Under the pieces are notes generated by a model that worked only from the letters and a program-made list of their open reading frames with translations, was not told where the DNA came from and searched no databases. 64,000 nt of DNA from Candidatus Poribacteria bacterium (GTDB taxonomy: Bacteria; Poribacteria; WGA-4E; WGA-3G), in the NCBI GenBank assembly GCA_963663765.2, contig CAXXUA010000006.1, positions 256,001 to 320,000 on the forward strand, in the 5' to 3' direction. Below are positions 34,680 to 62,548 of the stretch, one piece after another. The translations under genes were made by a program, and so were the position numbers. Within the stretch, counting starts at the first letter, position 1. Each line of letters opens with the position of its first letter.

Positions 34680-34689
34680 TTATTGTTGA

Positions 34690-41104: not shown

Positions 41105-42091
41105 TGCAACGTTCTCCTTTTGTAAACAGCACAGTCGCATTTTCTCTTTTGAGGTCCTCGCGTCTGTCCTGAAAGATATGAATATAACTCAAGTTGCTAC
41201 CTATAGGATTTTAGACCTGCAGACACCGTTTCTAATAGATTACAATGCACTTTTGGAAGTTTTTGTAGTGCAAACTTTAGTTTGTGTGCTAAGTGGTTCA
41301 CTCGCTAAACATTTATCATGTAGAGAACGGACAGAATAAACCCAAAAGTTCCTTCCCCCCGCTTGCTGGGGGATAAAGGGGAGTGGATTTAGGGAAGTCA
41401 AAACACAAATACTTAGCGAGTCAACCACTAAGATGCACAAACTAACAGATTATGCTACAAGGTAGCAACTTGGGTGAATATAGTGTAATTCCAAATTAAC
41501 GGAATATGTCTTTTTCCGACGGTAGGTGCGGTTTCCTAACCGCACACTTAACAAGATAAAACACATTAATTAGGTATTAGTGGTTAAGGAAATGCGTAAG
41601 CCCTGGAGAATAATCTCCAAAGTATTTTTGGATTAGTATATATCTTCTGTATAGCGTCGATTCGCTTGCTTGTTTTTCATATAGTCGTATCATTAAACTC
41701 TTAGCGAGTAGAAGCAAAGATTTTAAAGCAAGTGTGAATTTGTGTGGAAAGAAATAAACATAAATTGCCTCTCTATCTTTCCCAATATTGCCTCATTATT
41801 CTATATTGCTTAAAATGATTTAATACTCTATTGCCGAGCATACACCAAAAATTCATTTTTGTCAAATATTTTCTAATAAATTACAATATTAATTAGTTTT
41901 AGTAGTTTTTGCAGATATTTAATAAATTCGTGAATTATATGCGTATGTCCAAAAAACGTTATATACGTTACTATAGTTTGGACAATTTTTATGGGTGTAT
42001 AAAGTTTTTGTAGAAACCCTGATATTAAAAGAAGGCTGTCCAGTTTCTATCAAAACTTGCTTGACGTTAGGGAACTGTGGGCTTCGTAGGG

Positions 42092-42338
42092 CTTACTATT
42101 ACCCATAAGTCGAATTGGAGTGACAAAGGCTTGACATGCTACTGTAGGAGGAGTTTCTAACCCCGATAGAGGACAGAAAACTGGTCATAAGAACTAAAAA
42201 ACCTTGTGAAATTAGTCTAAAAGGCCTATAAAGGTATCCTACATCTAAAATATTGGTCAGTTTTCAGGCGTTTTTGAGCAACAGGCACCTACAAAAGACT
42301 TAACGGACTATACCCAAAAACTTATGGGTAATAGTAAG
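42092..42338. mobile_element. 247-bp MITE with perfect 9-bp TSD TTCGTAGGG
   Basis: CTTACTATTACCCATAAGT / ACTTATGGGTAATAGTAAG ends. Confidence 0.88.
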
Positions 42339-42399
42339 TTCGTAGGGGCGGGGTCTCCTCGCCCGCATAAAGACTCTGTTCGGGCGGGGAGACCCCGCC

Positions 42400-42937
42400 C
42401 CATAGGCGTCAATTTAAGAAAAAAGTGTTGGTGTTTCTCTTGTGGGAGGGGTTTTCAACCCCGATTTGAGAGGAAAAGCGCGTAAAATCGGGGTTGAAAA
42501 CCCCTCCCACAAGAGGTCAAAATCCTTAAATTGACGCTTATGGGGTGCGCTTACAAAGCAGGTCTACCATCGGGGGTGCGCTTACAAAGCACGCCTGCAG
42601 GTGGGCGGCGAGGATGGCGCGCTTACAAAGCACGCCTGCAAGAGGGATAAGAGGGGTGCGCTTACAAAGCACGCCTGCAGGTGGGCGGCGAGGATGGTGC
42701 GCTTACAAAGCACGCCTGCAAGAGGGATAAGAGGGGCGCGCTTACAAAGCACGCCTGCAGGTGGGGGGCGAGGATGGTGCGCTTACAAAGCACGCCTACC
42801 AGCAGGGGCGCGCTTACATAGCACGCGTATCTCTTGTGGGAGGGGTTTTCAACCCCGATTTGAGAGAAAAAGCGCATAAATTCGGGGTTGAAAACCCCTC
42901 CCACAAGAGGTGAAAATCCTTTAATTGACGCTTATGG
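42400..42937. mobile_element. Long-TSD MITE enclosing REP doublets and about 8 tandem REP units
   Basis: CCATAGGCGTCAATTTAAG / TTAATTGACGCTTATGG ends; 17-bp GGCGGGGAGACCCCGCC on both sides. Confidence 0.7.
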
Positions 42938-43960
42938 GGCGGGGAGACCCCGCCCCTACGCACAGTAACCAAAACTTTACACACCCAATTTTATCTTGTA
43001 GAAGTTGATTATTCAACAGAACGTCTATTTTTCTACGAGTTTCGTATATTCGTGAAACTGGTGAAAATGCTGCACTCCAGCGGAGTGCTATGTTTATAGA
43101 AAACGGACTATCCACATGCTTTCACTCCAGCGGAGTGCTATGTGCGGATCTCACATACCGCTCCGCTGGAGCGGGGATGTGGACTGACAATGTGACTATA
43201 AACATATTGCTCCGCTGGAGCAAAGAAAGTTCCGTTTTGGTCATTATGTCTTGATTTGGTAACATAAGCGGTGAACCATTTTCTTATCAACACATGTTGG
43301 AAGAAAATTGTCCAAACTACCTTATACGTTAAGTAACTTTCATCGACAGATAATTCTCAAAACTGAATAACCCTAAATGTCAAATCAGATGCATTCAATT
43401 GTCACGGAGTATCTTTGTTGAAGGACATTTCAACAATAGAATCCCACTTGATTATACATCAATTCTATTGTTCTCAAATCATAAAACACAACATACCCAC
43501 ACCACCATAAGGTATAATAACATGAGTATGATAATTAACTGGACGGTGCAAATTGAACAGAGAACGGGTATATTTGTTGAAAAAGATCGTTATTTTGGCG
43601 TTTTTAACCCCCACGTTCCCATACGCTATCGCTATGGGAACCCTTCCCCCTTATTAAGGGGACTTTAAGAAGATACGTGGAAGTCCTAACTATTTATCAA
43701 ACTCACGTTATACTACAAGAGTACATTTCGACAATTGAATGCTTCTGAATGTCTATATTTTTAATATTGACAAGAAATCTAAATGTAAGTTAAATGTAGA
43801 ATCTACTATCATATTGAAGATTTATTTTCATGGTTCCTATGATATTTTATGTCAAAAACTTTACACACCAATGAAATATAATATAAGTTTATTCGTTTTA
43901 ATTTATAGTGTAGATGCTTACTTGATTTTATTTTCACTATACTCTCATAAGGAACATGAT

Positions 43961-47492: not shown

Positions 47493-49346
47493 CTACACAC
47501 TCATACCGAGTTCCTTACTCAGTTCTATAATACGTGCGTTGATCTTTGTCTTGTCAATCCTATTTTCAGAAACAAATTCTTGATATGGCGGTGGGATTCT
47601 GTCTGGTATCATTGCACGAGAATTTGCTTCCTGCATTGCGAGTAGAGCCATAAACATTTGCATCTCACGTGAATAGTCCGGCATATAATCTGCTACTGCT
47701 TCGCGCAAATCTTCCTCATTGAATGTATTTCGTTTTTTTCGCTTCGCTATATTATGGCTGCGTTGTGCAATTTGTGCAAGGTCATTAACGGTCACTCCAC
47801 GTAATTTTTGTTCTCTTGAAATTTCTTGAAAGTTTATATTTTCACGTGTGTGGAACCGACAGAAAAACTGCAAAATATTTGCACGACTGTCACGTACAGG
47901 GGGTAAAAGGACTAATTTATGACTGAAAATATCGGAACGGCGGAATATTGGTGGAATTAGATCTGGACGACTTGAGGATCCAATCCATATTACCTGACCG
48001 TGTTGTGTAGCATCACTGATGGCATTTGTAAGAATTGCTGGAAATCCGCGTTCAGTATCACCAGAATTCATACTTGATTGCGGTGCAGAACGTTCAATTT
48101 CATCCATAAAAACTACAACAGGGGCAAGGCCACGAATGAAACTTATAGCGGAATTTAGGTTTCTGTCATAGTTATTACCGTTCTCATTTATATTGATTGT
48201 AATCTCACTTACTTGACTTGCATAACGAAGCTGAATAAATGCCATGTTTGTCTGTCCTGCTAACATACGAGCTGCAAAGATATTTCCATTACCAGAGGGA
48301 CCAAGAATCAACAAACCGCGTGGTACACGTCTCATATCTTGTTCTTTCAAACCATCAGCTATATCCTCTATCACTCTTGTAACATGGGGTGACCAATGTT
48401 GTCTTGGATTATTAATGGGTTCATTGACTTCAATAATACCGTGACTGAAAGTTTTTACACTTTCACGTCGATAATTTGCAAGGAGTCGTCCCTCAGGTTT
48501 CTGTTTTTCTGATGCTGCATGCCGCACTAAATCGTGAATTCCGAACAGATTTAAACCCGCAGTTTCTCGTGCTAATGCTTGCTTGTCACGATTATTCCCA
48601 AGGTTCAATTCCACTTTTACTTTCTCATCAGGAGAATCTTCTTGTAAGATTTCCTGTGGTATTTTACTCATGTGTTGAATAAATTTCAGGCGTTCATCGT
48701 AATCTGGAAATGGTATTTCTACGACAGGTATTTCTTGATTTGAAAGGAAATTTGGATGAATATCAAGTGTATTTTGTGCTACAAGTAAGATGATATGCTT
48801 TTTTCTTCTAATATCCAGATTTGAAGCCCAATTCTGGAGTCTATGGAAAAAAATCTGTAGATTGTCCTTTGCACCCGTATCAAGGAATGGGTCGTTGGGA
48901 GAAATCTGTTCAAGATGATTAATTATCAAACCGACTCTGACTCTATCTTGCTTGAACAACTCGTTTATTCTATTTGCTAAGTCTTTCGTAGGTAATGGAT
49001 CAGTTCCCAAAAATGGATCTTTATGAAGTTCGTGGGTGTTTACTTGAGAATTTATTCTTTTGCGTTCTTCAGTCGGTTCCGGTAATTTATATTCTTCTGG
49101 AACCAGACCTAAAATGCGTTGAGTTTGTAGCCAGTGGTTGACATGGGGCCACAAGAATCCTTCAGTTGCATTGTATCTGATTACAATTTGACACCCGAGT
49201 ACGTTTAGTTGTTCCATCAGAAATTCCATTGCTGGAAGGTAACCGAATATTTCGTCATGTAGCAAATCATTCACGTTAAAATGCAGTAAAAATTGGTGTG
49301 CAGCTGAGACTTTGTATTGTGCTTCTATTCTATCCCAAAACATCAT
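47493..49346 (-). CDS. AAA+ ATPase-like protein with degenerate Walker A
   Basis: PRGLLILGPSGNGNI, VVVFMDEIE, SSRPDLIPPIFRR. Confidence 0.8.
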   Translation of the reverse strand: MMFWDRIEAQYKVSAAHQFLLHFNVNDLLHDEIFGYLPAMEFLMEQLNVLGCQIVIRYNATEGFLWPHVNHWLQTQRILGLVPEEYKLPEPTEERKRINSQVNTHELHKDPFLGTDPLPTKDLANRINELFKQDRVRVGLIINHLEQISPNDPFLDTGAKDNLQIFFHRLQNWASNLDIRRKKHIILLVAQNTLDIHPNFLSNQEIPVVEIPFPDYDERLKFIQHMSKIPQEILQEDSPDEKVKVELNLGNNRDKQALARETAGLNLFGIHDLVRHAASEKQKPEGRLLANYRRESVKTFSHGIIEVNEPINNPRQHWSPHVTRVIEDIADGLKEQDMRRVPRGLLILGPSGNGNIFAARMLAGQTNMAFIQLRYASQVSEITININENGNNYDRNLNSAISFIRGLAPVVVFMDEIERSAPQSSMNSGDTERGFPAILTNAISDATQHGQVIWIGSSSRPDLIPPIFRRSDIFSHKLVLLPPVRDSRANILQFFCRFHTRENINFQEISREQKLRGVTVNDLAQIAQRSHNIAKRKKRNTFNEEDLREAVADYMPDYSREMQMFMALLAMQEANSRAMIPDRIPPPYQEFVSENRIDKTKINARIIELSKELGMSV

Positions 49347-49679
49347 TTTCTCCAGAATAACTCTTTGTTAATGCTATTTTCAATTAATCAATATGATTGG
49401 AATTTTTATGCTTTATCTGTATATAGAATACCATATTACCTTTACACAAGTCAAATGATTCCAAGGTTTTTCAGTTTTAGGTATTTTACCTGTTTCCTGA
49501 GAAAATCGCGACCAGGAGGTTGCTCCTACCGCGTGGTTATTTTTTAAAAAAATTCAAACATTAGGAAAACTGAATAACCCAAAAATGATTTAGGTATGGT
49601 TTTTCAGTATTAGGTATTCTCTTCGAATGTTTTTCACCTGCTGTATACCCAGGCTGGTAGGAGTATTTTCCTAACCGCA

Positions 49680-50704
49680 CCATAAGCGTCAATTTAAGGA
49701 TTTTGACCTCTTGTGGGAGGGGTTTTCAACCCCGATTATAGTAAGACATATAATTATTTGGACAATTTGTAGCACAAACTCTATGATGATTAATTTATTA
49801 ATTCGGTAATAAATTTTTCTCACACGGTAGGTGTGCTTTGTAAGCGCGCTGTTGAGACTTGATGTGCCAGCGCGCTTACAAAGCACCAAATCAACGGTAT
49901 GAATGCCATTTAGGCATTCCCCGTCTACCATCGGGGCGCGCTTACAAAGCACGCCTGCAGTTGGGGGGCGCGCTTACAAAACACGCCTGCAGGGAAGTGC
50001 AGTTAGGGGGCGCGCTTACAAAGCACGGCTTGCAGTTGGGGGGCGCGCTTACAAAGCACCAAATCAACGGTATGAATGCCATTTAGGCATTCCCCGTCTA
50101 CCATCGGGGCGCGCTTACAAAGCACCAAATCAACGGTATGAATGCCATTTAGGCATTCCCCGTCTACCATCGGGGCGCGCTTAAAAAGCACGCCTGCAGT
50201 TGGGGGGCGCGCTTACAAAGCACGCCTGCAGGGGAGTGCAGTTGGGGGCCGCGCTTACAAAGCACGCCTGCAGTTGGGGGGCGCGCTTACAAAGCACACC
50301 TGCAGTTGAGGGGCGCGCTTACAAAGCACGCCTGCAGTTGGGGGGCGCGCTTACAAAGCACGCCTGCAGGGGAGTGCAGGTGGGGGGTGCGCTTACAAAG
50401 CACGCCTGCAGTTGGGGGCGCGCTTACAAAGCACGCCTGCAGTGGGGGTATGCCTGCAGGTGAGGGCGGGGATGGCGCGCTTAAAAAGCACGCCTGCAGT
50501 TGGGGGGCGCGCTTACAAAGCACGCCTGCAGTGGGGGTATGCCTGCAGGTGAGGGCGGGGATGGCGCGCTTACAAAGCACCAAATCAACGGTATGAATGC
50601 CATTTAGGCATTCCCCGCCTGCAGTTTGGGAGCAGGTGGGGGGCGCGCTTACAAAGCACGCTTACCGTTGGGTGCGTAAGTCCTGCTTAAATTGACACCT
50701 ATGG
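49680..50704. mobile_element. Long-TSD MITE shell containing a large REP array
   Basis: CCATAAGCGTCAATTTAAG / CTTAAATTGACACCTATGG ends; AGTATT(T/C)TCCTAACCGCA (18 bp) on both sides. Confidence 0.7.
49827..50670 (+). repeat. Array of about 18 GCGCGCTTACAAAGCACGCCT REP units, four carrying a 36-bp insert
   Basis: Inserts at 49887-49922, 50060-50095, 50126-50161 and 50581-50616. Confidence 0.9.
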
Positions 50705-50812
50705 AGTATTCTCCTAACCGCACCATAGCAGTGAATTTAAGAAATTGTTAGTATTTCATTCTGGGTATGGTTTTCAATCCCGATTTGAGGTGAAATATAC
50801 ATAAAAATCAGA

Positions 50813-50841
50813 TTGACAATGGTGATAAATAATGATATTCT
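50813..50841 (+). promoter_or_regulatory. sigma70 promoter
   Basis: TTGACA-17-TATTCT. Confidence 0.6.
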
Positions 50842-50888
50842 ATATTTGCATGATAAAAATTATTGTATTGGAATATACGTATTGAGAT

Positions 50889-51536
50889 ATGGATAAGACA
50901 GGTATTTTTACCCCAATTACAGTTGGTGTAATGGGTGGTTCAGCTTCTGGGAAGACAACTTTTGCGAATGCTTTAGGAGAACTCCTGGCGGAATTCTCAC
51001 CTATTATTCTGCATCAAGACTCTTATTTTAGAGATTGGTCTGAATTCACAGCTGAGGAACGAGAACAGGTGATAACAGCAAACCATCCAGATGCTGTATG
51101 TTGGGATGTTCTTATAGCTGATTTAGAAAAACTTCGTTCTAACACTACAATTGAAATACCTGCACCTGGTACACGTGCTGCAAATCGTGGCGATGATCAA
51201 CAAACTATTCAACCTAGTGATGTCGTGATTGTAGAGGGACACCTTATCTTTTGGAATCAGGAATTACGTGAGTTGTTAGACATTAAACTTTACTTAGAAG
51301 TGGATGCGCATGAACGTGTGCTACGACGTATGCTCCGAGATGTCGGTACACGCAGTGCGAATCTTGAAAGTGCAATTGGTTGGTATCGCCGTGATGTCCT
51401 ACCAAATTATCCGATTTACACGGAACCGTGTAAGAAATACGCTGACCTTATTATCCCCTTCCTAAACGAAAATCCGATTGCATTGCAAACTGTTACAGCT
51501 GGAATCCGCACCCAACTGACCAAAAGAAATTGTTAG
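50889..51536 (+). CDS. udk: Uridine kinase family protein
   Basis: GGSASGKTT, HQDSYFRD, NHPDA, IVEG, RRMLRD, YADLII. Confidence 0.8.
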   Translation: MDKTGIFTPITVGVMGGSASGKTTFANALGELLAEFSPIILHQDSYFRDWSEFTAEEREQVITANHPDAVCWDVLIADLEKLRSNTTIEIPAPGTRAANRGDDQQTIQPSDVVIVEGHLIFWNQELRELLDIKLYLEVDAHERVLRRMLRDVGTRSANLESAIGWYRRDVLPNYPIYTEPCKKYADLIIPFLNENPIALQTVTAGIRTQLTKRNC

Positions 51537-51806
51537 AATTTTCATCTAATACCCTTACAATACACAATCAACTAATCAGTAGGTCTTTTTGGCATATTCA
51601 CTATTTCAAAATGGCAAATGTATGTCAATGTGGCATCCTTATATTCCTTAATCTCAGAAGTATAATTTTAGGATATTTTCTGTTAAGAGTTGGAATCACT
51701 ACCTATTGATTTCAATACCAAAGAGATGATTATTCCGCATCGGTATTGATGTGAGAAGTTGATTCCATACATTTCATCAACCCATTTGAGTATAATAATT
51801 TATTTT

Positions 51807-51883
51807 TGGCATACAATTTGCTAAATAAATATCAGAGATTGAGAAGGCATTACAAGTGTCTTGAACATCGGCATAGAATTTGC
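51807..51883 (+). promoter_or_regulatory. Two tandem sigma54 (-24/-12) promoter motifs
   Basis: TGGCAT-ACAAT-TTGC (51807-51821) and CGGCAT-AGAAT-TTGC (51869-51883), both GG-N10-GC. Confidence 0.65.
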
Positions 51884-51925
51884 ATTTTATATTTCAGAAA
51901 ACTAATATATAAAGGAGAAAGAAAA

Positions 51926-52378
51926 ATGGCATATTTGACAACTCGCAAACCAATCGGAAATCTGTTCGGTCTACATAACGAAATGGGAAGACTATTTGGA
52001 GATCTACTGTCCTCTCAGGATGGAGATTCAAACACAGAAAATTCGTCTTGGATGCCTACGGTAGATATATCCGAAAATGAGAATGGTTTTGAAATTCATG
52101 CTGAACTCCCAGGTGTAACTGATAAGGATCTCAATGTTTCAGTAACCGACAACCTTCTGACAATAAAAGGAGAAAAACGGCAAGCGGAGAAAACAGAAGG
52201 TAAGAACTACCATCGTGTAGAAAGAAGGTATGGTAATTTCCAAAGAAGTTTCACACTGCCACGTCAAGTGAATACATCTGACATCAAGGCTGGATTTAAA
52301 GATGGTATTTTGACGTTATCAATCCCAACAGTTGAAGAAGCAATGCCGACTGAAATCCAGATCGCTACCAGTGAATAA
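51926..52378 (+). CDS. Hsp20/alpha-crystallin small heat-shock protein
   Basis: WMPTVDISE, AELPGV, ERRYGNFQRSF, DGILTL; AGGAG RBS. Confidence 0.93.
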   Translation: MAYLTTRKPIGNLFGLHNEMGRLFGDLLSSQDGDSNTENSSWMPTVDISENENGFEIHAELPGVTDKDLNVSVTDNLLTIKGEKRQAEKTEGKNYHRVERRYGNFQRSFTLPRQVNTSDIKAGFKDGILTLSIPTVEEAMPTEIQIATSE

Positions 52379-52468
52379 CAGGAAAACAATAGACATGCTT
52401 CGTATATTCTATATGTTCGAGGCATGTCCAATACACATAATTTTTCAAACAGAATAAGGAGTAAGACA

Positions 52469-52894
52469 ATGACATATATGACTTTAAGCAGACCTGTTCC
52501 GAAACCTTTCAAGTTCTACAACTCCATGCTTTCACCGTTTTATACACGTCCAGTAAAACAAACTCACAATTGGCAACCACATACGGACATTTCTGAAACT
52601 GAAGACGGATATGAAGTTAGGACAGAACTACCCGGTGTATCAAAAGACGATGTGCAAATCTCAGTCAAGGATAACTGTCTTACCATACAAGGTGAAAAAC
52701 GATGGGAAAATGGAGATGAATCAAAAGATTACCGTCGGATTGAACGTCAGTTTGGGAACTTTGAAAGGAGGTTTTCACTTCCCCCCAAAGTTGATGTTAA
52801 CAACATCACGGCTGAATATACAGATGGTGTTTTGACCTTATCTATACCAAAGCCTGAAGAAGTGAAACGGAAGGAAATTCCAATCGGTTACTGA
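52469..52894 (+). CDS. Hsp20/alpha-crystallin small heat-shock protein
   Basis: WQPHTDISE, ELPGV, ERQFGNFERRF, DGVLTL. Confidence 0.92.
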   Translation: MTYMTLSRPVPKPFKFYNSMLSPFYTRPVKQTHNWQPHTDISETEDGYEVRTELPGVSKDDVQISVKDNCLTIQGEKRWENGDESKDYRRIERQFGNFERRFSLPPKVDVNNITAEYTDGVLTLSIPKPEEVKRKEIPIGY

Positions 52895-52936
52895 TTAGGA
52901 GACAAGTGTTCAATAGTTTCTTACGTCACGGCAATA

Positions 52937-52978
52937 ACCAATAGGGTTGACATAGTCAAATATGTCAACCCTATTGGT
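52937..52978. terminator. Perfect 18-bp-arm inverted repeat after the hsp20 pair
   Basis: ACCAATAGGGTTGACATA-GTCAAA-TATGTCAACCCTATTGGT. Confidence 0.55.
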
Positions 52979-53276
52979 GTTACCTGTTTATAGTAAATTA
53001 TGGAATTAATTACACACATGTACAGGTAGGAGCGACCTCCTGGTCGCGACCGTATAGAGACTAGGAATCAAATCATTCGCGACCGAGAGGTCGCTCCAAC
53101 CGAATACAAAAGGTAGAATAAATAGTTGACCTACCAAAGCAGCTAACTGAAAGCAATGTCCAATTATTTTCATATTTCACCATAGCAATCCATATATTAC
53201 GAACAATTATTGGTTTTAATGGTCAAACAAAATGAGTGAAGAAAACTAATAATAAAACAAGAGAAGGAGAAATTAG

Positions 53277-54080
53277 ATGAGAAACTCACCAAGACCAGAC
53301 CAAAGAAGAACTTTTCAAGGTCCAGGTAGTCCAAGTACCCCACGTTCTGAAAGAAGACATCATCGGGAAGAACAGCATCGAGGTCAAGGGAGACATAGAC
53401 CCCAACGACCAACCAGAGAAGATAGAACCCAACGACCATCCAGAGAAGATAGACTCCAACGGTCACCCAGAGAAGATAGACCCAAACGACCATCCAGATT
53501 AAAAAGAAATCAGTCAAATCCTGAAATGCAAGGACAGGGTCCACCCCCACACGTAAGGGGTAATCGACAGAACCGTCCGAAAGAAGACCGAGAAAATAGG
53601 CGACGACGTCAGCATAAGCGAGCACATCATTCAAACTTCGGTTCACAGAATCCGATGAGACTACCGATGCAACGTAACAGTCGGATGAGGCACTTTTTTG
53701 ACAGAGGATTTACGGACGGTAAGCGAAACCCGAAAAGAGGTAGATCCAGATGGAATCCACCTGTTGAGTTTTCAGTTTATGAAGATAGATTTGAAGTGAA
53801 AGTTGAACTCCCAGGTGTTAAGCAAGAAAAAATCAAGGTTTCTACGACTGACAAGGTTCTGATAGTTAGAGGCGAAAAAAAGCGTGGAGAATCGGACGAA
53901 AAAAGGAAGGTCATGCATTCTGATCTCAGATATGGAAAATTTAGACGAATTTTACCACTTCCACCTCATGCTAATACAGATGGAATCAACGCTAAATTCA
54001 AGGATGGAGTATTAACTATTGTGATTTCAAAAACTGAAGATGCTAAACCAAAGGAAGTCCCTATTAATACTGACGACTAA
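53277..54080 (+). CDS. Hsp20 with long Arg-rich, repetitive N-terminal extension
   Basis: About 160 aa of R/P/Q/E-rich sequence with QRPxREDR repeats, then an alpha-crystallin domain; AAGGAG RBS. Confidence 0.88.
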   Translation: MRNSPRPDQRRTFQGPGSPSTPRSERRHHREEQHRGQGRHRPQRPTREDRTQRPSREDRLQRSPREDRPKRPSRLKRNQSNPEMQGQGPPPHVRGNRQNRPKEDRENRRRRQHKRAHHSNFGSQNPMRLPMQRNSRMRHFFDRGFTDGKRNPKRGRSRWNPPVEFSVYEDRFEVKVELPGVKQEKIKVSTTDKVLIVRGEKKRGESDEKRKVMHSDLRYGKFRRILPLPPHANTDGINAKFKDGVLTIVISKTEDAKPKEVPINTDD

Positions 54081-54163
54081 AGTAGAAATGCTTTGTTTGG
54101 ACGTTGATAAGAGGCTTATATTGAAGGTTAGTGCTGATAGACACTAACCTGTTTCTTTTTAAG

Positions 54164-54826
54164 CTAATTGCTGTTTTCCTTATCCTTTAGAATACCTGTA
54201 TAGACAAGTGCAGCAAGGACTGCACCTATACATGGACCGACAATATAGAGCCAGATGTTTCCCCACTGAGCATACTCTGCCCCAGCAAACATTGCAGGTC
54301 CTAAAGTCCGTGCAGGATTGAGCGATGCACGTGTCAATGGTCCTCCCATGAGTATACAAAATACAAGGGTTGAACCGATTGCAATCCCAGAAAAGTTTCC
54401 TGCTTTCCCACTTACCGCAGTGTTAAATATTGCATTTACGAGGAAAAATGTTAATATTATTTCAACGAAGAATCCTTGTGTTACGGTGACATTTTCTGCT
54501 AAGATTGTTACCCCTAAATCACCATACACTGGTAGGAGTCCTTTTAGCATCCTTGCTGCAAATATTGCACCAGCAAACTGAAAAAACCAATATCCCATTG
54601 CTGTAGAAAATCGGATCTCTCTTGCTATGAGAAAACCCAAAGTTACAGCCGGATTTATATGTGCTCCTGAGATGTGTCCAAACGCATAAATGACGCCGAC
54701 AACAACTAATCCGTGCGCAAGAGCAACTTCTAACAAAGCATCTTGATTGATTGCTAACGCACCAGCACCAATAAAAATAAGGGCGTAAGTACCTATAAAT
54801 TCTACAACTAATTTTCGTAAAACCAT
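54164..54826 (-). CDS. MIP-family aquaporin
   Basis: HISGAHINPAVT and SLNPART (two NPA motifs). Confidence 0.93.
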   Translation of the reverse strand: MVLRKLVVEFIGTYALIFIGAGALAINQDALLEVALAHGLVVVGVIYAFGHISGAHINPAVTLGFLIAREIRFSTAMGYWFFQFAGAIFAARMLKGLLPVYGDLGVTILAENVTVTQGFFVEIILTFFLVNAIFNTAVSGKAGNFSGIAIGSTLVFCILMGGPLTRASLNPARTLGPAMFAGAEYAQWGNIWLYIVGPCIGAVLAALVYTGILKDKENSN

Positions 54827-54882
54827 AAAATGTATTTTTTTCTAATCATATTCTTTTGTTTAGTCATCACAGACTTTTAGCA

Positions 54883-56241
54883 CTAAAGTGGCCATCTATT
54901 TTGGAATTGTGCAACCATAGCATCAGGACCACCGTGCTGCCCTAAAAAGTGCAAAAAGGCTTGATAGAGTCGGCGTGCTTCGTCTGTGTCTGAGTCGAAC
55001 CGATTATGGTTCTGTTCTGGATCAGTTGTTAGATGGAATAAACTTTTTGGTGCGCCTTTGTTTTCTAACAATAATGACCATTCACCATCAGTGACGTTAC
55101 CGTGTGGACTTCCGCCATCAGGACTCCAACCACCACCCCAAGCACCGTGAGAGACAGCATACTCACTACCTTTATCGGTGTCTCCGACGATTATGGGTAG
55201 GAGACTGTTCCCTTCAACCTGCTTACCGCGTTCAGCGCCAAATGCTTCAATCACGGTGGGTGGAATGTCAATAATACTTACCAGTGCATCAGTTTGTCTT
55301 GGTGCGACATCTGGATGATATATTAAGAGAGGAATATGGATTATCTCCTCATACATACTCAGGTTTTTCGCAATGAGATCGTGTTCTCCCAACAGAAATC
55401 CGTGATCAGCCATGAAAACAATCATCGTGTTTTCCATCAATCCCATATAGTCTATTTTTCTCAAAAGATGTCCAATCCATTTGTCAACAAGGCATGCTTC
55501 AGCACGGTAGAGTGCATTGAGACGTTGAGTTGTTCGTTCATCCATCTGATTTGGACCATAAGTAGGATAGATGGGTTCTGGACCGTCGTAATCATCAGGA
55601 TCAAATCGTCTGATGTGCCAATCTGGTACATCCCAAGGTTCGTGTGGGTCAAAGGTATCCACCATCAGATAGAAATTCTTATGCTGATAGTTGCGTTCAA
55701 GCCAATCGCATGCGGTTTGCATTGTTTGTGCAACAAAGGTATCACCCTCATTCTGTCGAAAATCTGAATTTTTGAGATGGTTAACGAGGCCTGGTGGTAA
55801 TCTGTTCGGATTAGGACGTGTGTGTTCTCTATAACGTAACACTTCTTCTGTATCAAAATCGTAAGGATGTGTTTCATACAGGTCGGATTCCTGTCCTCGG
55901 ATCCAGTTCCAACCTGTAAACCCTCTGTTATAGAAGAAGCCGTTATTGAGATGGTGTGGTGTATCTGCTATCATCATGCTAACAACACCTGCTTTTGTTA
56001 GATTGTTTGCTATGACAGGGACGTTGCGAGGTAAGGGTTCCCAGCCGCGCCGACAGATCCCTACTTCCCCAGTGACCAAATCTCCGCGAATCGGGACGGT
56101 TGGGAAGCTGCAGATGTATGCCTTGTTAAAGACAACACTCTTTTCTGCAAAGGCATTGAGTGCAGGACAATAACCCTTACCCCCAAATACCTCTAAATTG
56201 TCTCGTCTGAATGTATCTGAAATAATGTGAATGATGTTCAT
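54883..56241 (-). CDS. Sulfatase-like hydrolase (alkaline phosphatase superfamily)
   Basis: IISDTFRRD, PTVPIRGDLVTG, FDPHEPW, ADHGFLLGEH. Confidence 0.88.
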   Translation of the reverse strand: MNIIHIISDTFRRDNLEVFGGKGYCPALNAFAEKSVVFNKAYICSFPTVPIRGDLVTGEVGICRRGWEPLPRNVPVIANNLTKAGVVSMMIADTPHHLNNGFFYNRGFTGWNWIRGQESDLYETHPYDFDTEEVLRYREHTRPNPNRLPPGLVNHLKNSDFRQNEGDTFVAQTMQTACDWLERNYQHKNFYLMVDTFDPHEPWDVPDWHIRRFDPDDYDGPEPIYPTYGPNQMDERTTQRLNALYRAEACLVDKWIGHLLRKIDYMGLMENTMIVFMADHGFLLGEHDLIAKNLSMYEEIIHIPLLIYHPDVAPRQTDALVSIIDIPPTVIEAFGAERGKQVEGNSLLPIIVGDTDKGSEYAVSHGAWGGGWSPDGGSPHGNVTDGEWSLLLENKGAPKSLFHLTTDPEQNHNRFDSDTDEARRLYQAFLHFLGQHGGPDAMVAQFQNRWPL

Positions 56242-56271
56242 AGTTTTCCTCTTTGATATTTATGTTTTAGA

Positions 56272-57672
56272 TTATACCGTATATTCGCTTTCTTGTGGTG
56301 ATATTTCCTTTTCTCTATCAGCTATTTGCACGACTGCAGGTAGTAAACCGTATATCCCCCAGAAAGGTACACCGATCGCATCACCGTTAAGCAAGTTGTT
56401 CACAACGAAATGTACCATCAATGAAATTTCTGCTGCCATGAGGCCAATAATAATTGACCGGTAAAACCCATCATCAATTCGTTTGATAGCACGAAATCCG
56501 TATATAAGAAAAGCGAGATTAAGCCATAGCCAAACGACTAAACCGATACTACCGAGTTCTGCCATAACTTGAAGGTATTCACTGTGTGCACCTAACTGAA
56601 ACTGAGCAATATAGCTGCCGACAAGCGCAACATCCTCCTCATATAGCATTCCAAATGCACCATAACCCTTTCCTAAAATTGGACTGTCAAGGAACATTGA
56701 GAACGATTGTCCCCAACGTAACAAGCGTGCTCGATTGGAAGCGTAGTCTAAATCCACCGTCGTTGAAATCCTATCCAAAACTGCACTATACACACCCGGT
56801 AAACTCAAACATATCAGTAAGATTGCACCTGCAGCCCCTACGAATAGTACCTTTTTATGTGTAAAACCTTTACCCAACTGCAACAACATGAATCCAACGG
56901 CAACAATAACTGACAACCATACCCCGCGTGAGAAACACATGGTTAGACCCACACTGAAGCATAGAAACCATCCGACCCACATGACGCGGTCATATTTTTG
57001 ATTATCAAATAGCAAGCGACTCAGACAGATTAGGAAAAAAACAGCAGTAAATGACCCGTAAACAGAATAATTCGTGAAGGGTGAACTCCTATACGCACTT
57101 GTCCACTGCCATTCGTCAATATGGTAAAACAGCACGATAACTGTCCAAATAACTGCTATTGCTGCACTTGGAAATGAAGCTATAAATAGGTGTTTCAGAC
57201 TCTGACGATGTTGGACTAAATCAAAAACGACTAAGCTGAACAGGACATAAGTAGAATACCTGATTGCACCTTTCAATGTTCCAAATAGGTCAGGTGTGTT
57301 AATTGCAGATAGGAACGTAACGAAGATAAATAAACACAGAGGCAAAAGAAATGGAAAGGTAGGCTTGTGTTGCTGTTTACCAAGTGCAAAATCCAAAATC
57401 TTCTTAAGCAAATAGACTGCACAAAGCATCCCTAACAACGGTTCGGTAGGTGTCTGTATTTCAAGTAGATTGGGTATAATATAACGAAAGGAAAACGGTA
57501 GGCAGATTAACAACAAATAAGTTGCCATATCCATACCGATAAAAACAAAGGCACCGGTTGCAGCTAATAGGCACAGAACAGTAAGCGGTGTTTCAGAAAA
57601 GTAGCCAACGATTGTCCCTAACACAATGCAAACTATAAAGGGTAAAATACGGTATGCTTGCTTAAAGGACAT
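56272..57672 (-). CDS. O-antigen ligase (Wzy_C) family membrane protein
   Basis: Multiple TM segments, FSRGVW, SNRAR, PILGKGYG, AHSEYLQVMAELG. Confidence 0.88.
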   Translation of the reverse strand: MSFKQAYRILPFIVCIVLGTIVGYFSETPLTVLCLLAATGAFVFIGMDMATYLLLICLPFSFRYIIPNLLEIQTPTEPLLGMLCAVYLLKKILDFALGKQQHKPTFPFLLPLCLFIFVTFLSAINTPDLFGTLKGAIRYSTYVLFSLVVFDLVQHRQSLKHLFIASFPSAAIAVIWTVIVLFYHIDEWQWTSAYRSSPFTNYSVYGSFTAVFFLICLSRLLFDNQKYDRVMWVGWFLCFSVGLTMCFSRGVWLSVIVAVGFMLLQLGKGFTHKKVLFVGAAGAILLICLSLPGVYSAVLDRISTTVDLDYASNRARLLRWGQSFSMFLDSPILGKGYGAFGMLYEEDVALVGSYIAQFQLGAHSEYLQVMAELGSIGLVVWLWLNLAFLIYGFRAIKRIDDGFYRSIIIGLMAAEISLMVHFVVNNLLNGDAIGVPFWGIYGLLPAVVQIADREKEISPQESEYTV

Positions 57673-57684
57673 GCTTAATACGGA

Positions 57685-58425
57685 TTAGAACTGGGTTCTA
57701 ACTCCCATTCCAATCGCGGTTCCGTCTAAAATAATATTTAAAGGAACGGTGCCTTTAGTTTCAACGGTTTTTAAAATCCTTTTTAATTCAAAGGAGACAT
57801 AAGCGTTATTCCCTATTTTTGCTTGTGTGTTTGTCTGTGATTGCCATTGAAATAACTCAATACCTACTATAACGTAACCTGTTGAACTAATAGTACTATT
57901 TGAGAGCACGATACCTTGTTCTTTAAGTATTTCAACAACATTCCCATGAAAACTCGCTCTCAAGAAACCGAATCCGACTCCCAAATAGACAGGGATATAT
58001 TGATTTAGCAGGATGGGACGATACAAGAGTTGGTAAGACAAAGGGACAAGTGTTGTCGTTAGTGTTAAAGAGTTTTGTTCCGCGGTTTGAAGTTCTGTAC
58101 GCCAATACCCAATTTCTAACCGAGAATCAAGTTCAGGTCTGTGTTGAAAGACTGCTGAAAGTGTTGGCATAAGTGCTACAGGCGGATTTGTTACACCAAC
58201 ATTCTGAAGAAAATTAGTAAGATCACCTAACTCTGGTTTATAAGAATAGAGTGCGAATTGCAAGGATGAGTTCTGTATGTTGTGATCCCAGAAATTGTTG
58301 CCGATGGTAGATGGGTTTTTCATTTGTGCATCAGCAACATCGGCAATTGTGGGTATAGAAATGAAATAAAAAATGATTAATAGGCATATAAAATACCTAT
58401 TGTGTTGATTCATTTTATAGACCAT
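57685..58425 (-). CDS. Secreted hypothetical protein, possible small outer-membrane beta-barrel
   Basis: Signal peptide, amphipathic strands, C-terminal Phe. Confidence 0.6.
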   Translation of the reverse strand: MVYKMNQHNRYFICLLIIFYFISIPTIADVADAQMKNPSTIGNNFWDHNIQNSSLQFALYSYKPELGDLTNFLQNVGVTNPPVALMPTLSAVFQHRPELDSRLEIGYWRTELQTAEQNSLTLTTTLVPLSYQLLYRPILLNQYIPVYLGVGFGFLRASFHGNVVEILKEQGIVLSNSTISSTGYVIVGIELFQWQSQTNTQAKIGNNAYVSFELKRILKTVETKGTVPLNIILDGTAIGMGVRTQF

Positions 58426-58533
58426 CTATTTCTTCTCTGTTACATTTTTATATCATAAAAAATTTAGGATGCCCGAATAAGGACATCCTAACTATAATAG
58501 ACAGAAAAATAAAGGTAATACATTAATTGAAGC

Positions 58534-59409
58534 TTACATCATTGAGCCAGTTGGGTTAAGAATGACCTCAACGCGGCGATTCATTGCTCTTCCAGCAGAG
58601 TTATTCTGCGGTGCTACCGGATCAGTATGAGCTTTTCCTACGGCTTTTATCCTTGCTGCATCTATACCTTTATCTTTCAGGTATTTCGCTGCAGCGTTTG
58701 CTCTTGATTGAGACAGATCCCAATTGCTCTTGTGTGAACCACTTAGTACTGGTGTTCCATCAGCATGTCCGACAACAAGTACTGTTGCTTCTGGATTTTC
58801 CATGATCTGTCCGACAATGCCATCCAGCATTTCCATGCCTTCTTTAGACAACCTAGTGTGGCCACTGGCAAAATTAACGGTAACCAAGAGTGTAGGTTTA
58901 TTTGCAACTTCAGCTTTGAGTTCTGAGATGTCCGCTATAATAGAGGCGATTTGTGCCATGACTTTTTTCAAATCAATGTCTTGTGTCTTCAGTGCATTTG
59001 CTAGATTCACCAAATCTTTCTTTAACTTGGCATCTTCTGCTTTTGCAAATTCGTTTGATTTGTTACCTTGAGTTTCAATATCTTTTGATAGGGCTGCTCG
59101 TAGTTTTGCGTCATTTTCTTTTGCTTTCTGGTCAGCAGCAGCGATAGTATCGGCATCTCCTTGTTGTGAAGCAGCAATAGCCTCGTCTTTTCCCTTAGAG
59201 ATTGCCTCCATCGTCGATTTGTTGTTCTGATCAACCTTTCCTTCAAGTTTAGTAATTTTTGTATTTACTTCTGTATTGGATTGGTTAATCTCCGCAACGT
59301 GTTGATTTTTCCACATTTCAAACTCTTTTTCATCTAACTTACCGCAACCTATAGCGATAATACAAATGACCAAAAGAGATGTAATGGTAAATATTCCTCT
59401 GATATTCAT
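58534..59409 (-). CDS. OmpA/MotB-domain lipoprotein with coiled coil
   Basis: Lipobox-like AIGC, VVGHAD, NWDLSQSRA, GRAMNRRVE. Confidence 0.9.
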   Translation of the reverse strand: MNIRGIFTITSLLVICIIAIGCGKLDEKEFEMWKNQHVAEINQSNTEVNTKITKLEGKVDQNNKSTMEAISKGKDEAIAASQQGDADTIAAADQKAKENDAKLRAALSKDIETQGNKSNEFAKAEDAKLKKDLVNLANALKTQDIDLKKVMAQIASIIADISELKAEVANKPTLLVTVNFASGHTRLSKEGMEMLDGIVGQIMENPEATVLVVGHADGTPVLSGSHKSNWDLSQSRANAAAKYLKDKGIDAARIKAVGKAHTDPVAPQNNSAGRAMNRRVEVILNPTGSMM

Positions 59410-59539
59410 GGAATTCCTCCAAAAAATTGATGGGTAAACTGAGTGTTCAAATTATTTCACAATATCTGCGTCATAATAGTTTAACACAATTTAGGATTTA
59501 ATTCAAAAAAAATTGTTTTTGTATCACTATTACATTTAG

Positions 59540-59732
59540 CAGGACTTAAGCAGTCTCAAAGAATATCGATGGATTTGAGAGTTGAAATCGCATATAATCA
59601 TCCAATAAACTTTTTTAAGTTCATAAATTGATTTGCCAATACCAGTGACTTGTTTGATCATATGATTCGGAAAGTGTAAATGTAATGATAATGAAATAGT
59701 ATAACACAAATCTATATAGTGCGTAAGTCCTG
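59540..59732. mobile_element. MITE with CAGGACTTA ends and 5-bp TSD TTTAG
   Basis: caggacttaagca / tgcgtaagtcctg flanked by TTTAG. Confidence 0.78.
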
Positions 59733-60044
59733 TTTAGTTAACGCCCTCAAAATTTTAGTACCCTCCCAGTTTTTAGATTCCGACTAAATCCTTACCTATA
59801 CAGGCGTGAGAACGAATTTGGATTTGAAGCAAAAACTAAAATAGTAGAGTTGTAGAGTTGTAGCGTAATTTTTTGATGTAGTATTCGGTTTTTGAGGGTA
59901 GCCTCTAAAAACACAATTCTTAGGATTATCTTTTGAGCTTGGGTTAAGATTGGTGAATATATATTAACGACTTGTGCCAGTTAACCCATTGTTTTCAAAG
60001 TTTTTACATATATTAGGTTTATAATGCACACATATCGTCCCTAC

Positions 60045-60236
60045 CAAATCAACGCCAAATGCGCCAAATCAACGGTATGAATGCCATTTAGGCATTCCCC
60101 GTATGGCATTTGTCGGGACTAAAGAGGATGTACTATGACGTTTTTCTATAAACATATCGTCCCTACCAAATCAACGCCAAATGCGCCAAATCAACGGTAT
60201 GAATGCCATTTAGGCATTCCCCGTATGGCATTTGTC
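60045..60236 (+). mobile_element. Two nested mini-element pairs (36-bp B inside 34-bp A inside a REP)
   Basis: A 60045-60114 containing B 60065-60100; A 60167-60236 containing B 60187-60222. Confidence 0.88.
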
Positions 60237-61283
60237 GGGACTGAAGATCGTTTCAAACTATGAAGGACACCTGCAAAACGTCATGCTTATGTGAAACAAT
60301 GGTTAACATATAGTTATTTAGCACAACTCGTTATATCAGCAATCTGACAGAATAATTTATATGCACAATCTGCCAGAATGTGCTACAACTACACACACAA
60401 TCTGGAAGAATGTGCTACTACTACCCGCACAATTTGGAAGAATGTGCTACAACTAACCGCACAATCTGACAGAATGTGCTACAACTAACCGCACAATCTG
60501 ACAGAATGTGCTACAACTACCCAGACAATCTGGAAGAATGTCTATTATTGGCGAAGGTATTGTTAAACATGAACATCGCTTTTTAGTACCGTAGGGACGA
60601 TATGTTTATAGAAAACGAATACCCTCCCCAGTTCTTTAGTTCCGCCAAATGCCAAACGCGCATTTGGCGTTGATTTGGTAGAGACGATATGTTTATACTT
60701 CTATGTCGTTCCTACGGAACTCAATTGGGGTAGAAAGCATTTTCTATAAACATATCGTTCCTACGGAACTAAAGACATGGTCAAGATGGTCAATACCTTC
60801 GCCATTTTTGAGTGCTTCAGTTGAATGAGTATATAGTGTTGTTCTACCAATGCTTTGTGATATTGTTAGGATTACATAAATAAAAATAACTTCAGGTTTT
60901 CGTTGAAGTATTTTTTATTATCATAGCGTCTAATTTGACGATAGAATCTGACAGAATAATTTATATGCACAATCTGGAAGAATGTGCTACAACTGACCAC
61001 ACAATCTGGATGAAGATTAATTTATTAATCGGGTAATAAATATTTTTCAGATGGTAGGCGGGGAATGCCTAAATGGCATTCCCCGCCTACCGTGGCCGGA
61101 TTAGTAGAATTACCCAAAGTATTTTTTAATCTTCATGAAGATTGTGCGGTCAGTTGTAGCACATTCTTCCAGAATGTCTATTATTGGCGAAGGTATTGGA
61201 TGGCATTACATAATATTAACGACATAGCAAAATACTATCAAAAATATTGAAAACTGAATAATCCTGCTGTTCATAGAAAATTG

Positions 61284-61312
61284 TTGACAATAAATATCAA
61301 CTTTTATACAAT
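61284..61312 (+). promoter_or_regulatory. sigma70 promoter
   Basis: TTGACA-17-TACAAT. Confidence 0.7.
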
Positions 61313-61375
61313 TCCAATTATGACATGTGTAAACCCTTATTGAACGAAGGTAATATCTTCTAAGGAGGCTTTTTC

Positions 61376-62548
61376 ATGGCGGAACGAATTAAAATGGGAT
61401 TGGTCGGATGTGGAGGAATGTCCGGTGCCCACATGAATGGGTATCGTGAGTTGTGGTCAAAAGAGTTGAGAGAATATGAGATAATCGCCGCATGTGATAT
61501 TGAAAAAGGAAGAGCGGAACAACGAGCAAATCAGGCGTATGAGTTTCAAGGAGGTACAAAACCTGCAGTATATACAGACCTTGATGAGATGCTTGATAAA
61601 CATCCTGATTTAGATTGTGTTGATATATGCGCCTTGCATAGCGCGCATCATGTTCTTGCTGTACCAGCATTGGAAGCAGGGAAGCATGTTATTATTGAAA
61701 AACCGTTTGGTGTAACAATGCGTGCATGCAAACTGATGATGGAAGCGGCAGAACGTAATAATAAAATTATTTCTGTTGCTGAAAACTATCGTTTAGCGAG
61801 GATTCAACGCACCCGCAGTTGGGTGATTGCACAAGGACGTATAGGTGATCCCCGTATGTTCTTTTGGATTGAAGTGGGTGAAGCCCTGGGTAAATGGGGT
61901 TGGCGAAACTTTAAGATGGATGCTGGTGGTGGATGGGCATTAGACGGTGGTGTACATTTTACGGATTTGATGCGATATATCCTCGGTTTAGAAGCTGAAG
62001 AAGTATATGCAATCAATAAGGCTTATGAACCCTACCGTTACGATAATGCTGGTGCCCGTGAAGGTGGTTATTCAGTCGATGTTGAAGACGCAATGATAGC
62101 AACCATCAAGTTTGAACAGGGTGTAACAGCTCAATGGACTTGGGTCGGTTCTGCTCCCGCACACGGTTTTGGTCAACACACAATCTATGGAAGTGAAGGT
62201 GCTCTTGATTGGGGAAGAGGATTAATTCCTCGTGGTGGTGAAGCGATTTCTAATGACGATCTGATGAAAGAATTTACTGACAGTCTCACCGATGAGGAGA
62301 AGGAATACTACAACCCTGCTGGTATTGGTGACACAGTAGCGATTGAGTTGAAATATTTTGCGGATGCAATAAAAACTGGTGGTAAACCTGAAGTAGATGC
62401 GGTTGAAGGCATGCGTTCCGAAGCGATCTGTATGGCTGCCTATGAATCTGGTTATTGGGGTCGTCCTGTTACAATTGCAGAAATAGAAAACTGTGAACTT
62501 GAAGGATACCAAAAGGAAATTAACGATCACTTAGGAATAAGTGATTAG
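61376..62548 (+). CDS. Gfo/Idh/MocA family oxidoreductase
   Basis: GLVGCGGM, AGKHVIIEKP, GGWALDGGVHFTD. Confidence 0.92.
   Translation: MAERIKMGLVGCGGMSGAHMNGYRELWSKELREYEIIAACDIEKGRAEQRANQAYEFQGGTKPAVYTDLDEMLDKHPDLDCVDICALHSAHHVLAVPALEAGKHVIIEKPFGVTMRACKLMMEAAERNNKIISVAENYRLARIQRTRSWVIAQGRIGDPRMFFWIEVGEALGKWGWRNFKMDAGGGWALDGGVHFTDLMRYILGLEAEEVYAINKAYEPYRYDNAGAREGGYSVDVEDAMIATIKFEQGVTAQWTWVGSAPAHGFGQHTIYGSEGALDWGRGLIPRGGEAISNDDLMKEFTDSLTDEEKEYYNPAGIGDTVAIELKYFADAIKTGGKPEVDAVEGMRSEAICMAAYESGYWGRPVTIAEIENCELEGYQKEINDHLGISD

Follow-up and report, generated by a model that had tools for sequence, protein, structure and literature searches.

A stretch of 64,000 nucleotides from a Candidatus Poribacteria bacterium (assembly GCA_963663765.2, contig CAXXUA010000006.1, positions 256,001 to 320,000 of the forward strand; hereafter the window, numbered from its first letter) carries at 60045-60236 two copies of a three-level nest, in which a 36-nt tagged hairpin named B sits in the loop of a 34-nt tagged hairpin named A, and A sits in turn in a host hairpin. 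The organism is a sponge symbiont of one genus of Candidatus Poribacteria. In the first nest, the left arm GTCCC (60037-60041) and the loop bases TAC of the host hairpin occupy 60037-60044 (+), the host repeat being ...ATAAACATATCGTCCCTAC^GGGACTAAAGAG with the caret marking the insertion point. The 5′ part of A, comprising the tag CAAATCAACG, the 5′ stem CCAAATGC and the loop bases GC, follows at 60045-60064 (+), and B is placed in the A loop at GC^GTATG (60065-60100, +). The loop remainder GTATG, the 3′ stem GCATTTGT and a terminal C then complete A at 60101-60114 (+), and the right arm GGGAC closes the host hairpin at 60115-60119 (+). The second composite spans 60167-60236 (+), with A divided into 60167-60186 and 60223-60236 around B at 60187-60222. 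Folded as single-stranded DNA, the composite forms nested host, A and B stems at -14.9 kcal/mol (z -2.6; 5 of 200 shuffles equal). Repeated insertion of a discrete unit is well supported, because the unit boundaries are fixed, about 60 contexts are occupied, the stems covary, and the A loops are found empty as well as variously filled.

All coordinates in the original prediction, including the twofold nesting, were recovered in the window. That prediction described a shared 10-nt end followed by a stem-loop. The 10-mer itself was recovered at 14 places in the window and at 462 in the genome; the tag, however, proved to be longer, consisting of one to five (N)AAATCAA units followed by CG (that is, CAAATCAA, zero to four GAAATCAA units and CG), and this CG belongs to the hairpin stem, which closes on the first target base, G. 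A general unit is thus built of the tag, a stem-loop of 7-10 bp and one to three C, the stem sequence being family-specific yet paired. A consists of CAAATCAACG, CCAAATGC, GCGTATG, GCATTTGT and C, and B of CAAATCAACG, GTAT, GAATGCC, ATTTA, GGCATTC and CCC. A third family, C, places the stem TCAGAAGC/GCTTCTGA under the CAAATCAACG tag, and other species add the stems CAGCATGC/GCATGCTG, CTGAATGC/GCATTCAG and CCGAATAC/GTATTCGG to the same tag. All 76 simple A copies and all 15 simple C copies measure 34 nt; simple B copies number 205, of which 168 have a length of 36 nt and 37 a length of 35 nt. The absence of terminal inverted repeats (TIRs) and of any duplication beyond 1 nt was predicted correctly, since comparison of filled with empty sites revealed neither TIRs nor a target duplication and left the boundary ambiguous by one C only.

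Pairing of the stems was evaluated with 32 distinct A-type units picked by tag and loop only. In register, 221 of 256 cells paired, vs 71-119 when the partner was slid by one or two columns, and two-sided changes were located at stem positions 3 (A-T in 18, G-C in 11), 4, 6 (T-A in 25, A-T in 6) and 7. The compensatory change that had been noted for the copy at 9319 was borne out as well: the variant A′ has the stem CCGAATGC/GCATTCG in place of CCAAATGC/GCATTTG and occurs 12 times in the genome.

Further copies are scattered over the window. Uninterrupted A elements lie at 359-392 (-), 60644-60677 (-) and 38125-38158 (+), the last with a weakened stem (GCATCTG). B interrupts host repeat 2 (GCGCTTACAAAGCAC^G...) at 49887-49922 (+) and again at 50060-50095, 50126-50161 and 50581-50616 (all +) in the same array, where many units are empty. 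The earlier claim that these four copies split aagcac^gcct was right in its positions but not in its right flank, which is GTCTACC rather than GCCT in three of the four. Two details went beyond that claim. At 9283-9419 (-), three consecutive elements share one host-2 site, namely a B with a five-unit tag (CAAATCAA, then four GAAAYCAA units, then CG) at 9353-9419, the A′ element at 9319-9352 and, as the last of the three, a B with the loop ATTAA at 9283-9318. A degenerate B was also found at 11754-11789 (-) inside a pair of GTAG-type repetitive extragenic palindromes (REPs), and the two closest species genomes lack this entire REP+B block of about 205 bp at the orthologous position. As predicted, filled and empty sites coexist within the window, the latter represented by AGTCCCGTAGGGACG at 9124-9138 and by many AAAGCACGCCTGC units at 49930-50560. 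The CAAATCAACG 10-mer was counted 14 times in the window vs 0.22 expected, and none of 100 shuffles reached 14. A tandem array with a unit of about 33-36 nt (CACAATCTGACAGAATGTGCTACAACTAACCG-like) adjoins the nested composites at 60330-60540; its sequence is unrelated to A and B.

The genome examined comprises 6.35 Mb in 15 contigs with about 41% G+C, and it contains the 10-mer 462 times vs about 12 expected from length alone. Sorted by the next eight bases, these tags were assigned to B (254), A (124, plus 12 of A′) and C (15 + 2); looser classes gave 269 B, 140 A, 17 C and 36 others, mostly chance matches. In total, about 894 A/B/C hairpins were recognised, with the tag often extended by 8-nt units: by the number of tag units there are 444 with one, 129 with two, 22 with three, 11 with four and 2 with five, a further 109 are tagless after CCCCGG as the second hairpin of double forms, and 177 have a degenerate or unrecognised upstream sequence. 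Identity over 34 nt to one of six variants was observed for 262 of 527 B copies. Although crude open reading frames (ORFs) cover 76% of the genome, 423 of the 462 tag matches fall outside them, and the remaining 39 are chance matches or lie in spurious ORFs over arrays. The 10-mer in a coding region of a 2.1-kb element with two DUF1670 genes was judged to be chance. The DUF1670 proteins of this repeated element, 279 and 294 aa long, are paralogues, and the element is present in four copies (contig C2 at ~65 kb, C3 at ~572 and 609 kb, C13 at ~130 kb), two of them with truncated reading frames.

The intergenic position of the 423 tag matches, the conservation of the sequence across species and the likeness of the tag repeats to iterons beside a hairpin would suit cis-acting functional sites, either protein-binding iterons with a hairpin or stabilisers of mRNA 3′ ends, which are kept alike by selection and are not mobile as such. 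Such a role is quite improbable as the explanation of the family, considering that copy numbers range from 1 to 466 among sister species, that nesting wrecks the loop of the host element, that whole tracts are absent from the nearest species, and that no orientation rule relative to the flanking ORFs was found (126, 119, 113 and 58 for the four arrangements).

For the analysis of insertion sites, 470 simple B units were compiled, this genome being pooled with 88 loci of other species, and 7+7-nt flanks that differed at no more than 3 of their 14 positions were merged into one class, each class counting as a single vote. The 178 distinct contexts collapsed into 60 classes, and the B boundaries were identical throughout. 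Among the 60 votes, C was found at -1 in 41 and at -3 in 33, G at +1 in 49 and at +2 in 32, and T at +4 in 35. The strongest signal is therefore the G at +1, and the 5′ side is enriched only for C at -1 and -3. The C^G preference that had been proposed was thus upheld by genome-wide tabulation, in which C also precedes 428 of the 462 10-mer matches.

The hosts of B are diverse. They include GTAG-type REPs (GCGACCGG^GGGTCGC and, in other species, TCGGGAATC^GGAGTTCCC), other small palindromes (in other species, GGGGCAC^GGGACCCC and CGTTCCTAC^GGAACT), heptamer arrays, the A loop and the 3′ junction of another B. Insertion at the last of these sites leads to tandem runs, one of which, on contig C5, has nine units with a 36-nt period. 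Empty and filled copies of the hosts were counted in the genome: host 1 is empty (CGTCCCTACGGGAC) 595 times and filled 119 times, host 2 is empty 1080 times and filled 194 times, and host 3 is empty 85 times and filled 15 times. The REP loop GGGAATC^GGAG is empty in all 253 copies of this genome and filled in other species. Among 134 A copies, 79 loops are empty and 55 are filled at exactly GC^GTATG. Of the latter, 44 hold a simple B, for which five tail/loop variants occur, and 11 hold complex inserts. Single host subclasses of A display empty loops alongside up to four kinds of filled loop. In predicted folds of the empty sites of host 1 and the REP, C^G falls within the loop or at its edge. 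Of the two host-2 folds, that of the terminal-type unit likewise has C^G in the loop or at its edge and that of the array unit has the site inside the stem; the fold of host 3 is weak.

These units are probably non-autonomous, REP-like mobile DNA hairpins whose insertion depends on structure, each being inserted whole on the 5′ side of a G that lies within or next to the loop of a hairpin. According to this model, an entire unit would enter without inverted ends or target duplication, directly 5′ of G and usually after C, in the loop or at the loop edge of another hairpin repeat, such as a REP, another host repeat or the GC^GTATG loop of the sister element. The target G would complete the closing C-G pair of the new hairpin, and the inserted unit would recreate the C^G junction at its own 3′ end and add a new loop, which would give rise to the tandem runs and the nesting. 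A trans-acting enzyme, presumably dedicated to the units and encoded elsewhere in the genus genomes, would recognise the tag and hairpin and cut and join single-stranded or extruded DNA, and host-plus-insert composites would then be amplified as larger repeats.

A contrary explanation is that a few old insertions, or hairpins formed de novo, were carried along by amplification of the host repeats and homogenised by gene conversion, the units themselves no longer moving. In favour of this, one host predominates in each family. Of the 76 simple A copies, 54 lie in CCCTAC^GGGACT, or 62 if near variants are counted, and 14 of the 15 simple C copies lie in A[AT]AATC^GGGGTT, the 15th having AGGGTT. 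Arrays of identical filled units also exist, for example eight units on contig C4 at 110-112 kb, and composites recur as units. Even so, passive spread is unlikely to account for the family: B occupies about 60 context classes, empty loops and several B variants occur within one host subclass, the 36-mer is identical across species with about 20% gene divergence, and complete genomes within the genus differ in copy number by a factor of more than 100. The pattern is accordingly not that of a handful of ancestral insertions for which duplication of REPs was the sole means of spread, although composites do also spread as units. Discrete non-autonomous units that are smaller than MITEs (miniature transposable elements with inverted repeats) and nest in each other, as originally predicted, agree with the roughly 60 contexts, the variously filled paralogous sites and the 1-466 copies across the genus.

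Several observations weigh against the model of structure-dependent mobile hairpins. Every observed insertion sits within a further repeat, and some of the coexistence of filled and empty sites can therefore be imitated by gene conversion between copies of the host. For the GGATT-heptamer host, the filled form has GGGATT and the empty form CAGGATT, which does not fit a simple picture of pure insertion. The nested-composite locus is one of six copies of a composite repeat of about 370 bp that includes 60167-60236, with four other genome copies at 97-98% identity and one at 91%, and a REP+B block like that at 11724-11840 is found elsewhere in a sister genome. No presence/absence polymorphism of a single unit at an orthologous site was seen, the closest genomes differing by whole tracts. 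GC and TA skews are weak and inconsistent, and the replication strands of the units are not assignable. Moreover, no enzyme for unit movement was identified in the searched genomes.

Host-plus-insert composites certainly also amplify as larger repeats after insertion. In the two closest species genomes, flanking genes are about 88-91% identical, and all four alignable repeat-bearing intergenic tracts of the window are missing or tiny (~10-180 bp). The tract at 59410-61375 is represented there by about 180 and 70 bp, that at 11660-11870 by about 10 bp each (9 and 12 by alignment coordinates), and that at 49461-50813 by 24 and 132 bp. The repeat-rich tract at 34670-43925 (9.25 kb), which includes the A copy at 38125, is replaced by 47 and 21 bp between the same flanking genes. 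Presence/absence variation between related genomes was thus seen for whole repeat tracts and not for a single unit. The units and their hosts accompany intergenic tracts of 0.2-2 kb and a 9-kb block lacking in the sister species, whose genomes measure 4.5-5.2 Mb vs 6.35 Mb here. Public short-read contigs stop at these repeats, and the joints found in public reads have a depth far above the local depth and derive from repeat copies elsewhere. The breakage of short-read contigs at the units matters for the assembly of sponge-symbiont genomes. A search of metagenome contigs with the neighbouring 692-aa protein returned distant relatives only (best 57% identity) and no loci of the same species. 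Separately, a 130-bp MITE with the terminal inverted repeats CTAGTGCTTAGTCA...TGACTAAGCACTAG lies at 2732-2861 and carries two REPs; a public contig of a strain about 98% identical (run X7, record 26) joins 2731 to 2862, the MITE being absent.

The family is restricted to one genus. An exact scan with a B 21-mer, one genome per species, returned at least 86 stretches, and among the matches listed 79 of 80 belong to Candidatus or uncultured Poribacteria and one to an 'uncultured bacterium'. B was present in 24 of 24 sampled genomes of the genus vs none of 16 genomes drawn from three further families of the order. In a fuller draw all 40 genus genomes carried it, the copy number running from 1 up to 466 in the genome described here. 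The bare 10-mer was counted 29-550 times per genome in 24 genus genomes; for 57 genomes that represent 14 other genera, the count was 14-50. Copy numbers are burst-like: genus genomes in one contig contain 1, 3, 4, 53, 59, 131, 154 and 404 copies of B, and assembly quality is consequently not the cause of the spread. The same 36-mer B also occurs in species that share only 78-83% identity with this genome in the flanking genes. No exact match to B or A was found in a viral contig collection. In the literature, no description of these Poribacteria elements was found, mentions of CRISPR being returned instead, although their sequences may overlap with those of the small dispersed repeats (SDRs) of cyanobacteria; the 10-mer in both orientations returned only primers and unrelated sequences.

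HUH-type enzymes are still the best known class that would act in this manner, yet the Y1 genes encountered do not suit the role. The genome has six Y1 matches, comprising four IS200/IS605 copies, one gene like a REP-associated tyrosine transposase (RAYT) and one fragment at a contig end. The four insertion sequence (IS) copies measure 1.75 kb, encode TnpA and TnpB, and have ends unrelated to the tag. Five of the Y1 genes were checked for nearby tags, and none has one at a distance of up to 1.5 kb. The RAYT-like gene (contig C4, ~621.6-622.1 kb; 159 aa; Pfam Y1_Tnp E 1.3e-10) is situated at locus L099 (C4, ~620.1-623.5 kb) with long GTAG-tagged REP arrays on both sides (GTAGGAGGGAACTCCGATTCCCGA and relatives), so that the locus looks like a classic REP-RAYT unit. 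Those GTAG REPs form a family separate from A, B and C and are among the hosts of B.

The original prediction favoured a Y1 HUH enzyme of the IS200/IS605 or RAYT type, which would bind the hairpin and cut the single strand at the tag and after the stem. A single hairpin with a single-stranded flank, the lack of TIRs and duplication, and the loop targets all fit such a substrate. The six Y1 matches and about 20 TnpB-only IS200/IS605 relatives provide possible sources in the genome, and REPs inserted in small palindromes are recorded for other bacteria in the available portion of one account (PMC3733652). The TnpB-only relatives are 1.44 kb long and 93-99% identical over about 20 full-length copies (for example contig C2, 189515-190954), and their end upstream of tnpB, consisting of TTATCAAGAATCACG, a spacer and a TTTA-loop hairpin, resembles the two-unit tag ATCAAGAAATCAACG with its hairpin. 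This likeness is weak, 97 of 5000 shuffles scoring equal without correction for the roughly 18 ends inspected, and is therefore a lead only. The TTGAT in the reverse end, noted earlier as the ISDra2 target motif, may be coincidental; the local IS ends are different.

The comparative data speak against such an enzyme. Among the 40 genus genomes, all of which carry B, the RAYT query matched 29 and the Y1 family 35. Five genomes had no Y1 match at E<=1e-8 and yet contained 131 (in one contig), 96, 109, 28 and 35 B copies, whereas a genome with 20 Y1 matches had 3. Spearman coefficients over the 40 genomes were -0.05 for B vs Y1 (p 0.74) and 0.11 for B vs the RAYT query, values that are descriptive only because the relatives are not independent. 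In addition, the REPs on either side of the RAYT-like gene belong to a different family, the TnpA-bearing copies have unrelated ends, the unit has a single hairpin, and no conserved target of 4-5 nt is apparent 5′ of the insert. With unrelated IS ends, no tag near the Y1 genes checked, a rho of -0.05 and carriers that lack a Y1 match at this threshold, the proposed Y1 mobiliser is unsupported and unlikely. The companion suggestion that the units are scars of a larger element was followed through all convergent tag pairs within 6 kb, among which no long parent element with inverted tags or unit ends was found; this leaves the scar reading without support.

Other candidates were equally unproductive. 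TnpB was rejected as a discriminating mobiliser, since it is present in all five high-copy genomes searched and hence does not discriminate. The Y2/IS91 search gave no match in five genomes, but the control genomes were equally silent, so that this negative carries no weight. Only 25 of 3771 crude ORFs are flanked by units at both ends, none of them both transposase-like and recurrent, so no gene family bracketed by units emerged. A 91-bp MITE with 33 sites (for example contig C4, 872.6-873.0 kb) and the ends ATACCAAATTAACG / CGTTAATTGGGTAT contains CCAAATTAACG, which matches the tag and its usual preceding C at 10 of 11 bases, and an IS630-family transposase copy in the genome starts with the end of this MITE. 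The tag-like bases lie inside the TIR and not at its tip, and the likeness is a lead only.

A few copies of this related 91-bp MITE have the tag-like sequence beside TATAAT-like motifs, and the unit itself resembles a small structured RNA, which invites the idea that a small RNA composed of tag and hairpin was reverse transcribed and integrated. This route is very improbable. Five high-copy genomes were searched for RVT_1, and four of them, among which is the present one, gave no match, whereas the control genomes did. No 5′ truncations, A-tails or target duplications were seen, and Rfam 15 returned no family match for 49000-61500 of the window, the best hits being two microRNA models with E values of 0.18 and 0.64, far below their thresholds.

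For the structure-dependent mobile hairpins, it is tentatively proposed that the mover may be an enzyme class not yet tied to transposition, or a known nuclease in a new role, that reads the 8-nt iteron-like tag by the hairpin and joins the 36-nt unit into loops of single-stranded DNA, on the 5′ side of a G. If this were true, no smaller self-nesting transposon would have been defined, and the unit would move without Y1 or RAYT enzymes.

Comparison with known systems identified A, B and C as a real and apparently undescribed family of mini-elements that is REP-like and SDR-like, the distinction from SDRs being drawn from descriptions only. According to the available portions of two accounts, REPs and REPINs (REP doublets forming hairpins) are imperfect palindromes of 20-40 nt that are extragenic, clustered and present in hundreds of copies, and they vary between strains and species (PMC3733652, PMC3116915). 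As far as these portions go, the units are alike in being short, imperfectly palindromic, extragenic and abundant (~894 hairpins; 423 of 462 tags outside ORFs), and some REP families also sit in small palindromic targets (PMC3733652). They differ from the REP/REPIN-RAYT systems in that the tag is CAAATCAACG rather than GTAG or CGTC, in that the unit appears to be a single hairpin instead of an inverted pair, in that the sole RAYT-like gene is flanked by separate GTAG REPs and not by units, and in the absence of co-occurrence (RAYT in 29 of 40 and B in 40 of 40 genus genomes; Spearman 0.11). CGTC-tagged REPs, in the part of the source at hand, combine a tag, a stem-loop and a short C-rich tail with no dedicated transposase (PMC3733652). 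The Poribacteria units share these features, including the lack of a dedicated transposase, but by the same partial account differ in the sequence and length of the tag, in self-nesting and in the expansion of the tag by 8-nt units.

The movement of DNA pieces well under 100 nt has been an open question since the SDRs of Nostoc were described, and the present family is a second independent case from another phylum. The SDRs of Nostocaceae are reportedly 21-27 nt long and are said to nest in each other. SDR5 inserts between nucleotides 3 and 4 of highly iterated palindrome 1 (HIP1), as stated in the available parts of two reports (PMC4390886, PMC5861425). Within the reach of those parts, both families are very small, are inferred to be mobile, insert precisely in a short target, are lineage-restricted and have no known enzyme. 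The units described here belong to the phylum Poribacteria, are longer (34-36 nt) and have a tag-plus-hairpin form, a comparison made by description and not by sequence, and HIP1 is not enriched in this genome (29 GCGATCGC in 6.35 Mb). A cyanobacterial origin, which the likeness to the Nostoc SDRs would suggest, was rejected on the grounds of this lack of HIP1 enrichment and of the Poribacteria records among the B 21-mer matches listed.

Among larger elements, IS200/IS605 ends combine a subterminal hairpin and a single-stranded flank, lack TIRs, duplicate no target and use single-strand targets. The units are alike in their hairpin and single-stranded flank and in lacking TIRs and duplication apart from the one-base ambiguity, and their targets would likewise be single-stranded. 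Unlike IS200/IS605 derivatives, in which the left and right ends each have a hairpin, each unit has one hairpin; its ends are not shared with a resident IS; and Y1 is absent at the above threshold in 5 of 40 carriers. On the 5′ side of the insert, only C at -1 (41/60) and -3 (33/60) is enriched, the G at +1 (49/60) being stronger, and no conserved tetra- or pentanucleotide target is apparent there. Helitrons and IS91-type elements have a fixed 5′ end and a hairpin before the 3′ end, insert between two fixed nucleotides without TIRs or duplication, and are kilobases long. The units resemble them in the fixed 5′ end, the hairpin just before the 3′ end, the two-nucleotide site and the lack of TIRs and duplication, but measure 36 nt rather than kilobases. 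In contrast to classical MITEs, they have neither TIRs nor target-site duplications, and the true MITEs of this genome (91 and 130 bp) are different.

The anatomy of the units is clean, with a fixed tag, a covarying hairpin, a defined C^G loop target and dozens of independent contexts. Since 40 related genomes span 1-466 copies, a comparative hunt for the enzyme and cleavage and joining assays with oligonucleotides are feasible.

Two further hairpin forms accompany the family. A second kind of mini-hairpin, with its tail on the opposite side (the hairpin, then CATGATTC), occurs in this genome and at loci L010, L017, L030, L040, L046 and others, and is nested within B hairpins, as in GTATGAAT|CATGGAGCATGCCATACGCGCATGCTTCTTTAG|GCATTCCCC. 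A single 47-nt perfect palindrome at 107366-107412 of contig C4 has the B tag and 5′ arm mirrored on its 3′ side, and its flanks are palindromic as well (GTAGGTC...GACCTAC).

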